IMG/VR virus record: IMGVR_UViG_2648501165_000010 | Reading direction: 5' to 3' (one strand) | DNA: 7,808 bases | From: a virus | Lineage: Duplodnaviria > Heunggongvirae > Uroviricota > Caudoviricetes | Shown: in pieces, positions 1 to 7,770 of the stretch | Layout of the letters: every line of letters starts with the position of its first letter | Numbering within the stretch: position 1 is the first letter of the stretch | Notes under the pieces: generated by a model | Databases searched by the model: none | What the model saw: only the letters and a program-made list of their open reading frames with translations | What the model was told of the DNA's origin: nothing | Made by a program: the position numbers and the translations under genes

Positions 1-309
1 CGCTTCACGCGTATCGTGTTTCACATCCTCGATCTCACGTAACGCCGCACGACGACCAGTTTTAAAGTTCGTATCCAGCTGACCGATAATGGTTGCGCTA
101 ATCGCATTAATTTCTGACGTAAACGCGGACAGCGCAGGCTGATTACGCAGTACCTGTTCGATCTTCGCTTTCTAGGAAGCCTCACATTCACCATCTGCAT
201 AGGCCACCAGGTAGGCGGCGTTAATCACCACCTGTGCCAGATCGCGTTTTTCAAACTTTTTAATTTCCGTTGCCGCTCTGCGGGCTTTTTTACCAAAAAT
301 ACCAAACAT
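1..309 (-). CDS. TerB-like late-region protein, 3' partial, interrupted by an in-frame TAG at 172-174
   Basis: ATG at 307-309 with AAGGAA about 8 nt upstream. Reads MFGIFGKKARRAATEIKKFEKRDLAQVVINAAYLVAYADGECEAS (45 codons, 175-309), then TAG, then the same frame stays open for 57 more codons (KAKIEQVLRNQPALSAFTSEINAISATIIGQLDTNFKTGRRAALREIEDVKHDTREA) to the window edge. The AYADGE...EKAKIE pattern resembles the TerB family by recall only. The track ORF start at 456 is an upstream in-frame extension without a better RBS. Confidence 0.5.
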
Positions 310-813: not shown

Positions 814-890
814 TAGCGCGTTGTACTGGAGTCGAACCAGTGACCGATTGCTTAGAAGGCAATTGCTCTGTCCTGCTGAGCTAACAACGC
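814..890 (-). tRNA. tRNA-Arg, anticodon UCU (reads AGA/AGG), phage argO-like; 3' CCA not encoded (GCTA)
   Basis: Perfect cloverleaf on the reverse complement: acceptor GCGTTGT/ACAACGC, D-stem GCTC/GAGC, anticodon stem ATTGC/GCAAT with loop CTTCTAA, T-arm ACTGG-TTCGACT-CCAGT, discriminator G. The three bases after the discriminator are CTA. Confidence 0.7.
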
Positions 891-903
891 AGAATACCGA
901 TAA

Positions 904-979
904 TGGACCACCACCGGGGACTCGAACCTCGCACACTCAACTTAAAGGGTTGACGCTCTTTCCTGATGGCTAGTGGCGG
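904..979 (-). tRNA. Atypical tRNA-like gene with encoded CCA; anticodon loop CCTTTAA (UUU with C33), weak D-arm; possibly degenerate
   Basis: Acceptor CCGCCAC/GTGGTGG pairs with one G-U, T-loop TTCGAGT, anticodon stem TCAAC/GTTGA, discriminator T then CCA. The D-stem does not pair canonically and one T-stem pair is A-C. Confidence 0.35.
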
Positions 980-1107: not shown

Positions 1108-1134
1108 AAAAAAACCCGCTTGTGGGCGGGTTTT
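1108..1134 (-). terminator. Bidirectional intrinsic terminator, tR'-like for the late transcript
   Basis: Stem CCCGC (1115-1119) / GCGGG (1126-1130), flanked by A7 on the plus strand (7 U on the minus transcript) and TTTTGTTT on the other side. Confidence 0.7.
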
Positions 1135-1185
1135 GTTTGCTTTTGCCATCACGTACAAAATCGGCAAAATATCAGATTTGCATGA

Positions 1186-1214
1186 AATATATGCCTTTCA
1201 ATCTACTTTTGCAA
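1186..1214 (-). promoter_or_regulatory. Candidate late promoter (pR'-like) overlapping the stop codon of the Q-like gene
   Basis: Minus strand reads TTGCAA, a 17-nt spacer, then TATATT, about 45-70 nt upstream of the terminator. This geometry matches lambdoid pR'/qut/tR' regions. Confidence 0.4.
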
Positions 1215-1887
1215 CACTTTGCTTTGAAAATGCCGCCTTTTGTTTTGAACGTGTTCTCATTACAAATAATAAAGCCTCACTATCCAGTCGGTGAAAAATG
1301 TGTTTCATTGCAACCCAGTGACGAGTAAATGTTTTGGACCAGTTTTTAGTTGTCACTCCCGCCAGTAATGCCAGCTCCTGATATTCATAACCTTCCCCAC
1401 CAAAAAGTTCTGCTTTTACTGCCTGCGCCGCCAGCCAGATTAATTTTTTCAGGCGTTCCTGCGTTTTCCCAGCAATTTTTCTGGTACCGGATTGAGTATT
1501 AAATTCATTCCACGCCCACTGTGTTATCGCGATCTGATATTCCCAACAAATACTCCCGCTGTAACACCACAACAACCAGGCTTTATGATGTTCTTCAAGA
1601 GACAGAACAGCCCGCCGCCACGATGATGTCGAAAACTCAACCGGACTGACCAGAGGAATTGACGTCACCTTCGCCAGCGATTGCTTTCCCGGGATTGGTG
1701 GATTATCCCGCGTTATCATTTTTCCAGTCACTTCATCGCGGTACCGGATTTTTTTTCGCCTGTAACGCCCTGTATCGAACATGGCATTCTCCTGCCAGGC
1801 TTCAAGCTGACCTTTTGTTGCCCCACTCAAATCAGCGGTGGCGATAATGAGCTGCTCACGCACAAACTGTAAATAGTGGTTATTCAT
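1198..1887 (-). CDS. Putative late-gene antiterminator, Q-family-like (229 aa), assigned mainly by position
   Basis: ORF directly downstream of rusA with an ATGA stop/start overlap and GGAG 6 nt upstream of the ATG at 1885-1887. It is followed by the promoter, terminator and tRNA cluster. The track's start at 1893 is a GTG two codons further upstream. No similarity to lambda Q was recognised. Confidence 0.5.
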   Translation of the reverse strand: MNNHYLQFVREQLIIATADLSGATKGQLEAWQENAMFDTGRYRRKKIRYRDEVTGKMITRDNPPIPGKQSLAKVTSIPLVSPVEFSTSSWRRAVLSLEEHHKAWLLWCYSGSICWEYQIAITQWAWNEFNTQSGTRKIAGKTQERLKKLIWLAAQAVKAELFGGEGYEYQELALLAGVTTKNWSKTFTRHWVAMKHIFHRLDSEALLFVMRTRSKQKAAFSKQSVAKVD

Positions 1888-2249
1888 GCGCACTCCAGTT
1901 CTGTGATTTTTATCCCCAGCCGCCCACCAGGAACGAGCTGACCGCGCACAATATTGATTTCATCAAACTGCTCGTCGTCTATGAGAAGTCCGGCATGCGT
2001 CAGCACATCCAGTGGTGCTTTCAGGATATTGTCCAGGTCACGACGGCGCTTATCCGGTGGCTCTGCAATAATCTTTATCACCAGCCTTCCGGACAGGTTT
2101 AATTTCAGCCGCTGCTGGCGAACAATTAGCGCCACATCACGGCGATAACGCTTTCCGGCTTCCGAGATGAAATACGTATTGCCATGACGTCGCCAGTAGG
2201 TATTCACCGTCGGCGGGTAAGGCAAAACAAATTCTATCCGTTCAGTCAT
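1884..2249 (-). CDS. rusA: Holliday-junction resolvase RusA (121 aa)
   Basis: MTERIEFVLPYPPTVNTYWRRHG...DKRRRDLDNILKAPLDVLTHAGLLIDDEQF...GGRLGIKITE matches the RusA family (catalytic D-x-D-N region) by recall. The start ATG abuts the stop of the upstream gene. Confidence 0.9.
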   Translation of the reverse strand: MTERIEFVLPYPPTVNTYWRRHGNTYFISEAGKRYRRDVALIVRQQRLKLNLSGRLVIKIIAEPPDKRRRDLDNILKAPLDVLTHAGLLIDDEQFDEINIVRGQLVPGGRLGIKITELECA

Positions 2250-4319: not shown

Positions 4320-4475
4320 TTACTCCTCAGGTTCGTAAGCTGTGAAGACAGCGACCTCCGTCTGGCCGGTTCGGATTCGTACCTCGCAGAGGTCTTTCCT
4401 CGTTACCAGTGCCGTCACAATGACGGTTAAACAGATGACGATCAGAGCGATTAATATCGCCTTTTGCTGCTTCAT
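4320..4475 (-). CDS. hokD: Hok-family membrane toxin HokD (RelF), 51 aa
   Basis: Translation MKQQKAILIALIVICLTVIVTALVTRKDLCEVRIRTGQTEVAVFTAYEPEE with AGGAGAAG SD. The six-frame track misses it because it lists only the antisense ORF. Confidence 0.9.
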   Translation of the reverse strand: MKQQKAILIALIVICLTVIVTALVTRKDLCEVRIRTGQTEVAVFTAYEPEE

Positions 4476-4546
4476 AGCCTGCTTCTCCTGTCAACGCAAA
4501 GCAGAAGTGTCACCTTCGGTGCGAAACAGAGATGTCATGCTTTGGT

Positions 4547-4834
4547 TCAGAGAATGCGTTTGACCGCCTCGCTATATACTTCCGAGCGTTCTCTTTTCCC
4601 AACAGAAATCACGAAAACGACAACTTTCTCGTCTATAACCTGGTATACAAGGCGATAGCCTGAAGACCGGAGCTTAATCTTGTAACAATCAGGCATACCA
4701 CGGAGCTTGTTTGCTTCAATCCGGGGTGACTCAAGTACTTCAACCAGCTTCTTTTTCAACTGTTCACGTACCGTCGAGCCCAGCTTTCGCCATTCCTTTA
4801 GTGCCCGCTCGTCAAAATCCAGAAAATACGCCAT
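4547..4834 (-). CDS. relE: mRNA interferase toxin RelE (95 aa)
   Basis: MAYFLDFDERALKEWRKLG...VISVGKRERSEVYSEAVKRIL is essentially the K-12 RelE sequence by recall. The start overlaps the relB stop. Confidence 0.95.
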   Translation of the reverse strand: MAYFLDFDERALKEWRKLGSTVREQLKKKLVEVLESPRIEANKLRGMPDCYKIKLRSSGYRLVYQVIDEKVVVFVISVGKRERSEVYSEAVKRIL

Positions 4835-5073
4835 CAGAGTTCATCCAGCGTCACACGTACTGGCTTAGGATTACGAAGCCGTTCTTTCACTATCTCCACA
4901 AGTTCAGCATCTTCATCACTCAGGAGTGTCTGTTTGAACGGCAAGCGTTCATTGTCAGCGATATACTCGAGCATGAGACGAAGCGCTTCAGAAGGAGTTA
5001 CACCCATTTTTTCAAGCGCGGCGTAAGAACGCGCTTTAAGTTCATCGTCAATACGCAGGTTAATGCTACCCAT
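4834..5073 (-). CDS. relB: Antitoxin RelB (79 aa)
   Basis: MGSINLRIDDELKARSYA...RNPKPVRVTLDEL matches K-12 RelB by recall. Confidence 0.95.
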   Translation of the reverse strand: MGSINLRIDDELKARSYAALEKMGVTPSEALRLMLEYIADNERLPFKQTLLSDEDAELVEIVKERLRNPKPVRVTLDEL

Positions 5074-5605: not shown

Positions 5606-5938
5606 ATGTCTGTCACAATTCAGGGAAATACCTCAACCGTTATTTCAAACAACTCCGCCCCGGAAGGAACATCAGAAATAGCCAAAATCACAAGACAAAT
5701 TCAGGTGCTGACTGAAAAGCTTGGGAAAATCTCATCGGAAGAGGGGATGACGACACAGCAGAAAAAAGAAATGGCTGCATTGGTACAGAAGCAAATTGAA
5801 AGCCTCTGGGCTCAACTGGAGCAGTTGTTAAGGCAGCAGGCAGAGAAAAAGAATGAAGACGCGACAGTTCAGCCTGATAAAAAAGAAGAGAAAAAAGACG
5901 ATACAAATACCGCTGGCACCATTGATATTTACGTCTAA
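5606..5938 (+). CDS. flxA: FlxA (110 aa), FliA-regulated prophage protein
   Basis: MSVTIQGNTSTVISNNSAPEG...TAGTIDIYV with AAGGAG SD matches K-12 FlxA by recall. The middle is coiled-coil-like and the tail is charged (KKEEKKDD). Confidence 0.9.
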   Translation: MSVTIQGNTSTVISNNSAPEGTSEIAKITRQIQVLTEKLGKISSEEGMTTQQKKEMAALVQKQIESLWAQLEQLLRQQAEKKNEDATVQPDKKEEKKDDTNTAGTIDIYV

Positions 5939-6329: not shown

Positions 6330-7770
6330 TCTACCCTATGAATGGATATGCACTCAACCGAATCGATCTTGGTTTCAATCTTTTTTATCGGGATCAGGCT
6401 TCTTTTTAGGTAACTTCGGGGGCTTAACTTGCTGATGACTTTGCGTTCGGCGCGTAAGCCAGGGATGGTCAGCTTTAGGTTTAACATAGTATTTTGAGCG
6501 TAAATCAATACGGGCATTATCCACTCGTTCATGGACACTCTTTTCATCATCCAGTGGTATAGGCTCCGGGCCATCAACATACTTTTCCCAGCCCGGCGCT
6601 TTCCCGTCATACAGAACGTTAATTTCACCGTCAAAGTTCTCGCATACAGTAACAACCGAATGCCTAAGTCGATATCCCCGGCCCTCACTGCGTACCTGAA
6701 ACGCACTGCTTTTGTACTGGAAAGTGAGATTTTTAGACAGAACGCGCTTCGCCTGTAGGCTGAAGATATAACCCAGTTCCTCTTCAGAATGGTGCACATC
6801 AAGATGAGCATTATCAGTAGTACGAGGCGACGTAGCGAACCGGTTGTTATAGGCTTCAATAAAGGTCGGCAACCATGCATTTGCTGTTTCAATATCACTG
6901 ATATTCTGAAGCCGCATTTCTTTGACCAGCCTGTCCTGTAGTGTCTGATTGGCGCGCTCTACCCGCCCTTTTGCCTGCGGGCTGTTGGCATGGATTGGCT
7001 CGATGCCCAGTGTCTTTATCGCACGAGTGAACTGGGTCAGCTCACCTTCCCGCTCTGGGTTATTTACCCTGAATATACTGTGTCTATCAGAGTAGAGAGC
7101 GAGCGGTACGCCATGATCATTAAGGTAACCCCGGAGGGTTTCCATGTAAGCCCGGGTTGTTTCAGCAGGCACAAAACGCAACGCCATCAACGCACTGGTG
7201 GCATCATCAATGAAAACGATCAGTGTACATCTGGGGCCTCGATTTTCAAACCAGTCATGAGGTGAGCCATCAATCTGGATCAGTTCACCGTAAGATGGTC
7301 GTCGCATGCGGCGTTGATATATACGGGCAATTTTACGACGGCGTTCACGCCATAACCCCTCTTCTATCATCCACTTTCTGAGAGTTTCAACGGATAAAGA
7401 TAAACCGTGTATCTCGCGCAATTTTTCGCACGCAAACGTAGGTCCAAAATCAGCGTAACGGCCTTTGAGGAGTGAAATTACTGTTGCTCTGAATTCAGTA
7501 GAAAAGGAATTATTAGGACGCTTTCCACGTCGGTGGGAAACCAGACCAGAAGGCCCTTCATTTCTATACCGTTGCACCAGACGTTTAACCTGCCGAATAG
7601 AAATGCCAATGCGTGCCGCAGCTTGTTCCTGAATAATCTGAAGTCGGTGGAGTTCCTTATGACTCATCGTAACAGTCTCTTTGATCATGAAAAATCCCCC
7701 AGAGAATTGTCTGGGGACATTTTAGAATGGTTCAAAGGGGACATTACAGCTTGGTGTTAACAATAGCCTG
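6330..7770 (-). mobile_element. IS-like element carrying the transposase; ends not resolved
   Basis: Transposase gene present, but no terminal inverted repeats could be matched between the left and right flanks inside the window. Confidence 0.25.
6375..7688 (-). CDS. DDE-type transposase/integrase (437 aa), N-terminal HTH plus rve-like core; IS481/ISNCY-like, family unresolved
   Basis: N-terminus IGISIRQVKRLVQRY looks like a helix-turn-helix. Candidate DDE residues are in QIDGSPHDW, LYSDRHSIF and SPQAKGRVERANQTL. The SD GGGGGA lies inside a 6-bp hairpin (CCCCAG/CTGGGG, 7697-7716). Confidence 0.85.
   Translation of the reverse strand: MIKETVTMSHKELHRLQIIQEQAAARIGISIRQVKRLVQRYRNEGPSGLVSHRRGKRPNNSFSTEFRATVISLLKGRYADFGPTFACEKLREIHGLSLSVETLRKWMIEEGLWRERRRKIARIYQRRMRRPSYGELIQIDGSPHDWFENRGPRCTLIVFIDDATSALMALRFVPAETTRAYMETLRGYLNDHGVPLALYSDRHSIFRVNNPEREGELTQFTRAIKTLGIEPIHANSPQAKGRVERANQTLQDRLVKEMRLQNISDIETANAWLPTFIEAYNNRFATSPRTTDNAHLDVHHSEEELGYIFSLQAKRVLSKNLTFQYKSSAFQVRSEGRGYRLRHSVVTVCENFDGEINVLYDGKAPGWEKYVDGPEPIPLDDEKSVHERVDNARIDLRSKYYVKPKADHPWLTRRTQSHQQVKPPKLPKKKPDPDKKD

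Follow-up and report, generated by a model that had tools for sequence, protein, structure and literature searches.

A widespread amber codon probably makes a nonsense pseudogene of a TerB-family cargo gene in E. coli prophages

The window analysed here, a stretch of 7,808 nt from a tailed-phage record (IMG/VR IMGVR_UViG_2648501165_000010), carries at its very edge the beginning of a TerB-family gene that is interrupted by an in-frame amber codon. We consider it very probable that this is a nonsense pseudogene allele of a 143-aa prophage TerB-family gene, in which the codon for Glu46 has become amber. A single G-to-T substitution would have converted GAG (Glu46) into TAG, and translation from the ATG would then end after 45 residues, presumably with the loss of TerB function. 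As lambdoid prophages of EHEC/EPEC-type strains recombine and multiply, they may have spread the amber allele, the loss of an accessory gene being probably costless to the phage; the amber would not be kept as a recoding site, and its high frequency would reflect hitch-hiking combined with the sampling of EHEC strains. The stop is already flagged in public annotation and is an ordinary, known nonsense polymorphism among EHEC-type prophages: in all four complete-genome loci inspected (L001, L002, L003 and L173), PGAP lists a 'tellurite resistance TerB family protein' pseudogene with an 'internal stop', and the identical window allele in E. coli UTAK-1 is so annotated. A literature search found no paper on the TerB amber; the only mention of TerB was as a gene conserved next to those of the sRNAs PasA/PasC (bioRxiv 10.64898/2026.05.13.724894).

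Read from its ATG, the minus-strand frame 309..1 comprises 45 sense codons, the TAG and then 57 further open codons up to base 1, with the 3′ end of the gene lying off the window (Table 1). The translation runs as MFGIFGKKARRAATEIKKFEKRDLAQVVINAAYLVAYADGECEAS, the stop, and KAKIEQVL...DTREA, where KAKIEQVLRNQ stands directly past the stop. The sequence-only reading had described a single TerB-like gene split by an amber codon and equipped with a good ribosome-binding site, and both points are borne out, the latter by a Shine–Dalgarno AAGGA at 322-318 (minus strand), 8 nt before the ATG. An alignment with distant homologues shows that they share the N-terminal MFG(I/M/L)F. Moreover, homologues do not end after 45 aa and their downstream frame is conserved, which favours the single-gene reading. 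In the window's own allele, the amber is the sole lesion. The same reading had also seen a DG...E-K-x-K-I pattern in both halves of the gene; two such motifs are indeed present in full-length relatives, but the window itself contains only the first, which straddles the stop (ADGECEAS-stop-KAKI), while the second DG...E copy, ADGEIEPEERKVL (residues 116-128), is situated past the window edge, so that only full-length relatives show it.

Table 1. Features of the window discussed in the text, with the evidence for each
Feature	Position	Strand	Evidence or remark
TerB-family (TciA-like) prophage cargo gene, first 103 of 143 codons	1..309	-	translation; probable pseudogene by in-frame amber
ATG start	307..309	-	sequence
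amber TAG, codon 46	172..174	-	Glu of first TerB DGxxxxxE motif in homologues
A6 homopolymer, Lys7-Lys8	286..291	-	alignment with sister alleles, allele counts
tRNA-Arg(UCU), argO-like	816..890	-	ARAGORN; Rfam RF00005 68.1 bits
degenerate tRNA-like 'Lys(UUU)'	904..979	-	ARAGORN; homologous to argN tRNA-Arg(UCG) of O157 prophages
hairpin	1111-1134		just downstream of Q
promoter-like site	1214-1186	-	just downstream of Q
antiterminator Q	1198..1893	-	Pfam PF06323 303.7 bits

The gene is a member of the TerB family by descent, and a complete TerB domain is not encodable from it. For the profile searches, the query was the read-through product, in which Glu filled the stop and full-length relatives supplied the C-terminus. 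With this query, a search for the TerB domain, one of the checks proposed on the basis of the sequence, scored above the cut-off: PF05099 (TerB) matched residues 31-138 with 57.8 bits (Pfam cut-off, 24.4), the match spanning the stop. In addition, PHROG 632 ('tellurite resistance') was matched end to end (E=5e-69), and the sequence of the solved TerB structure 2jxu was matched over residues 15-137 (E=3.7e-7), with Glu46 falling opposite the Glu of its SEEK segment. P0002, an intact homologue, was modelled with AF2 at a pLDDT of 89.3; in this model, helix 1 spans residues 4-36 and is followed by the loop ADGECEA (37-43), and helix 2 starts at E46. Among PDB folds, the model is matched best by 2h5n, probably classified as TerB-like, with a probability of 1.0 and a TM score of 0.56-0.62 but an E of 0.016. 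The product encoded by the amber allele is devoid of two intact DG...E motifs, the Glu of the first being replaced by TAG and the second motif lying past the stop. Comprising helix 1 and the ADG loop, the 45-residue product would be too short for the helical bundle of a TerB domain, and its function would thus be lost. A PADLOC search returned no significant match, leaving membership in a defence system unsupported, and the names TciA and TciB used for phage JLK-2012 and in PHROGs were given by homology.

The amber allele is widespread among E. coli prophages. Searched with the 480 nt surrounding the gene, 807 of the 5,426 complete E. coli genomes gave 2,825 matching places, and the amber allele accounts for roughly one third of all copies in complete genomes. 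An exact 41-mer containing TAG, designed so that every 28-base seed word includes the T of this codon, has 961 exact matches, spread over 576 complete E. coli genomes with no more than five in any one of them; the same 41-mer with GAG has 164 in 159 genomes, a count that misses GAG alleles with nearby synonymous differences. Within the same 39-nt context in IMG/VR, TAG is found in 89 contigs, GAG in 20, and no other codon was encountered. Finally, the finished genomes of two bovine isolates, UTAK-1 and OkiPb01711, carry the A6+TAG allele of the window with 100% identity over 181 nt. The sequence-only reading had left three options for the stop, one of them a base-call or assembly error in a draft assembly, with which the scaffold-like window, interrupted by N gaps, and its A6 run, where most close relatives have A7, would agree. 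The chance that this accounts for the TAG is nevertheless negligible, since the exact context recurs in hundreds of independent complete genomes as well as in the IMG/VR contigs, and the A6+TAG allele is identical in two independently finished genomes; for the TAG itself, the exact-allele counts in complete genomes rule out an assembly error.

Aligning homologues, likewise proposed as a way of finding which sense codon belongs at this position, returned GAG (Glu). Intact 143-aa E. coli proteins, which are 95-97% identical to the read-through product and fall into clusters of 108-848 members, carry it; the alleles P0001-P0005 read ASEKAKIEQ, the sequence there being ...GECEASEKAKIEQ.... Glu46 is invariant in 23 of the 23 aligned homologues, down to 50% identity, and so is its counterpart in the second motif, E124, in the same set. 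Codon 46 also specifies Glu in all 23 loci retrieved from species-representative genomes at 34-96% identity, which include Pantoea, Franconibacter, Serratia, Pectobacterium, Pseudomonas, Halomonas, Marinomonas and Desulfovibrio. The TAG 39-mer has no match in the species-representative genome collection; TAG is present in none of the 23 divergent loci, being found only in near-identical E. coli prophage alleles. A lone protein with TGG (Trp) at this position, P0008 of the protein database, sits on a TAG-lineage haplotype and is apparently a lone revertant or an error.

These observations also bear on the second option, a site of stop-codon readthrough. Programmed readthrough is not supported: the stop is not conserved in divergent homologues, and neither a suppressor tRNA nor a stimulatory RNA structure accompanies it. 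Instead, it is confined to one shallow lineage, most carriers of which have no working start codon. The gene had been correctly placed downstream of phage tRNAs, none of them with a CUA anticodon, as ARAGORN finds Arg(UCU) and 'Lys(UUU)' nearby. The proposed scan for suppressors came back empty, with no CUA, UUA or UCA anticodon among the tRNAs that ARAGORN detected in 173 related loci, where the anticodons are CAU, UCU, UCG, UUU, GUU and UCC. A suppressor encoded in the adjacent phage cluster can thus be rejected, as the window, three complete-genome loci and the 173 loci yielded other tRNAs only, namely Met/Ile(CAU), Arg(UCU), Arg(UCG), the degenerate 'Lys(UUU)', Asn and Gly. As for a readthrough-stimulating RNA structure, shuffled sequences fold as well as the 141 nt around the stop (z = -0.69).

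Within positions 1-1300, the Rfam tRNA model accepts only the tRNA-Arg(UCU). The 'Lys(UUU)' element has no Rfam tRNA match at E<=0.1 and is left unannotated by PGAP. Read by eye, it has C, not U, at position 33 of the anticodon loop, and the element is identical in O55:H7 CB9615. It looks like a decaying copy of argN, a phage tRNA, and not like a suppressor.

The TAG lineage bears further marks of decay, which became apparent when 190 phage-derived copies (92 TAG and 98 GAG) were compared. Unrelated sequence takes the place of the RBS, the ATG and codons 1-17 in 52 TAG copies and in no GAG copy. In 34 TAG and 12 GAG copies, an A7 run after codon 6 shifts the frame of the ATG, from which only a dead-end ORF of 16 codons can then be read; for these A7 alleles, PGAP uses a TTG start instead. 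An in-frame ATG is retained either with a 'KKK' N-terminal variant (2 TAG, 49 GAG) or with A6 (4 TAG, the window included, and 35 GAG), and one deleted G causes a frameshift in two GAG copies (L074/L077) and in no TAG copy. Consequently, 86 of the 92 TAG copies (93%) have no usable authentic start, and with no route for ribosomes from the authentic start in 93% of amber copies, a recoding site is hard to reconcile with these data.

A weaker form of the readthrough idea is that the allele is leaky, a near-cognate tRNA or a host suppressor decoding UAG at a low level and so providing enough TerB for selection to act upon. The frame past the TAG is open in 86 of the 87 complete TAG copies, the window allele and five others keep both the in-frame ATG and the RBS, and the stop is followed by A, a context that may favour suppression. 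We nevertheless deem this explanation improbable, because in 93% of the sampled TAG copies ribosomes are not delivered from the authentic start, because the insertion of a near-cognate residue, which at UAG is normally other than Glu, would not suit a position that is invariantly Glu, and because the 173 loci offer no suppressor tRNA, the RNA no stimulatory structure and the divergent homologues no example of the stop. Since the TAG copies have diverged little from one another, their open downstream frame has no power either way, and a young pseudogene and a leaky functional allele are indistinguishable from sequence alone. For the minority with an in-frame ATG, there is a slighter chance still that the amber acts as a leaky attenuator, which would let through traces of a TerB/TciA-like protein under very high late transcription or limiting RF1; the intactness of the downstream frame in all but one of the 87 copies and the high frequency of the allele are compatible with it.

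The nonsense pseudogene, the third option and the one that we favour, agrees with the presence of a sense codon in orthologues and with the extra lesions and relaxed constraint in the TAG lineage, the latter resting on small numbers of non-independent copies. Among lineage-private changes, the ratio of non-synonymous to synonymous ones (N:S) is 5:3 for the TAG lineage, where D39N alters the DG motif, compared to 7:44 for the GAG lineage (Fisher p=0.006), a contrast that is based on eight private TAG-lineage changes in copies that are not independent and on a GAG set which, consisting of the best tblastn matches, is biased toward intact copies. When only singletons are counted, the contrast becomes 4:7 vs 3:3 and its significance is lost. 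With a neutral expectation of about 3:1, the private changes of the TAG lineage look close to neutral. The A7+GAG haplotype is already altered at otherwise constant positions, D117E of the second DG motif being an example; probably, it was on an already impaired copy that the amber arose, and it would later have been recombined onto other 5′ ends.

Two further observations concern the 5′ part of the gene. The A6/A7 length polymorphism at codons 7-8, where most sister alleles, TAG and GAG alike, have A7, could be due to slippage back and forth or to recombination. In about half of the amber copies (for example, L170, L134 and L137), the 5′ replacement of the first 17 codons has a sharp junction, and the tRNA-free region upstream consists of RusA followed by a gene for 273 aa (MKLEDLPKYYSPKS...). 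Thus, a module-exchange breakpoint between types of late region falls within the TerB gene. A link of this 5′-truncated TAG class with stx was considered and is not supported, as the 3.5 kb inspected upstream contain neither stx nor tRNAs.

An alternative explanation for the abundance of the amber is that losing TerB/TciA benefits the prophage or its host, which would account for the excess of TAG over GAG among the 41-mer places (961 vs 164) and for the several independent-looking lesions, i.e. the A7 run, the 5′ replacement, the amber and the deleted G of L074/L077. We regard an adaptive loss as no more credible than the leaky allele, given that intact alleles are abundant, with clusters of 108-848 members, and that purifying selection is strong elsewhere in the family (7 N vs 44 S). 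Moreover, the counts themselves are inflated by the heavy sampling of O157:H7 and other EHEC strains, each with several related prophages, and the exact 41-mer undercounts GAG alleles that differ synonymously nearby.

It could also be argued that the locus now consists of two small genes, one for a 45-aa N-terminal peptide and the other for a 48-aa C-terminal protein initiated at an in-frame GTG (Val96). Indeed, PHROG 3920 is made up of 48-aa products identical to residues 96-143, and a GAGG is located just upstream of the Val96 GTG. However, the annotation of a broken allele suffices to explain PHROG 3920, the spacing between GAGG and GTG is only 2 nt, no independent fold is known for half of a TerB domain (of the Pfam profile, the fragment matches positions 55-109 only), and most TAG copies are in no position to produce the 45-aa peptide. 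This arrangement is therefore very unlikely. If the gene is a nonsense pseudogene, the fragments of 45, 48 and 97 aa delivered by gene callers, such as those in PHROG 3920 and in the 'partial' cluster P0088, are annotation artefacts stemming from its disruption.

On the minus strand, the window is organized in the order DUF968, RusA, antiterminator Q, promoter-like site, hairpin, tRNAs and TerB gene, the last lying ~170 nt downstream of the tRNA region; in complete genomes, this order continues with DUF3927, STnc100, SASA esterase, holin and lysozyme. The position of the Q gene places the TerB gene in the Q-dependent late transcript, of which, by its arrangement, it appears to be an accessory 'moron'. 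The slot between the Q/tRNA block and the esterase/lysis genes is presumably the one that stx occupies in Shiga-toxin phages. Directly 3′ of the TerB stop, and hence off the window, the loci L001-L003 and L173 and those from IMG/VR carry a gene for a 55-aa DUF3927/TciB-like membrane peptide, which is matched by PHROG 1470 ('TciB-like'). Its GTG overlaps the TGA of the TerB gene (GTGA), suggesting that the two genes may be translationally coupled. The TciB-like ORF is truncated or frameshifted in 25 of the 83 TAG-linked loci, compared to 6 of the 90 GAG-linked ones (30% vs 7%; p=5.6e-5). A known sRNA overlapping the TerB gene was also sought and rejected, Rfam placing STnc100 and AgvB only downstream of the DUF3927 gene.

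The window itself is scaffold-like, with N runs at 578-652, 780-789, 1011-1020 and 2593-2602, and was probably stitched from short contigs of several similar prophages. The N runs act as scaffold gaps and not as length-preserving masks: N10 at 1011-1020 replaces 64 nt of a tRNA-Ile, and N10 at 2593-2602 joins two different copies of DUF968, whose identities to UTAK-1 are 100% and 84% and which, placed on the reference, overlap over ~185 nt. The stretch 790-2592 is 100% identical to E. coli UTAK-1. Owing to these gaps, the adjacency of the TerB gene to the tRNAs and Q rests on gaps in the window, and complete genomes give the same order. Positions 481-789 hold an extra, partly degenerate tRNA/leader unit, located between the TerB gene and the main tRNA block and not present in UTAK-1. 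At ~481-553, this unit has a chimeric remnant that resembles a tRNA but is not called by ARAGORN. A tRNA-Ile-like sequence also begins in it and continues into the N75 gap, and the leader 'ttacgaaatcaatgttgcaag' is repeated, with a promoter-like site at 686-658. In the Q-proximal leader with the hairpin, positions 1109-1182 (minus strand) give sub-threshold Rfam matches to isrK (22.7 bits) and isrJ (24.5 bits), at the place where a short late-promoter leader RNA is expected. Upstream of the late-regulation genes, at 4320-5073 and 6375-7688 on the minus strand, there are genes for two toxins, one a Hok/Gef toxin of 51 aa and the other of the ParE family and accompanied by a RelB antitoxin, and for an IS transposase of 437 aa (HTH and integrase core); an FlxA-like protein is encoded likewise upstream, on the plus strand at 5606-5938.

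The biological weight of the finding is small, as it amounts to one more accessory prophage gene caught decaying. Its practical consequence is that the TAG should not be 'corrected' as if it were an assembly error. Furthermore, the combination of the TAG, the A6/A7 run and the alternative 5′ ends provides a handy marker of recombination among the lambdoid prophages of EHEC/EPEC strains.

The intact E. coli prophage TerB proteins P0001-P0004 are 96-97% identical to the read-through product over all 143 codons, and the intact proteins P0001-P0005 are named 'tellurite resistance TerB family protein', or TciA in phage JLK-2012. Their alleles share with the window gene the locus between Q/tRNAs and the DUF3927/TciB-like gene, the start and the RBS, and differ from it by having GAG at codon 46, where the window has TAG. 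The TerB of the ter operon (PF05099, 2jxu) likewise consists of a single TerB domain with two DG...E motifs, but it is distant in sequence and encoded within the terZABCDE cluster, whereas the window gene, in a phage late operon, has only the gene of a small membrane peptide as its companion and is truncated. In the phage-plasmids P1 and P7, TciA/TerB is also a phage-borne TerB-family gene beside a TciB-like gene, although its similarity to the prophage gene, ~69% DNA identity, is limited to the last ~160 nt and its genomic context is another one. Finally, programmed readthrough, as known from A1 of phage Qbeta, has in common with the window gene an in-frame stop in a phage gene followed by an open frame. 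In such cases, the stop is kept across the family and serves to extend a complete protein; unlike in Qbeta A1, the stop in the window cuts a single domain at its conserved Glu, and most copies bearing it have no start codon.
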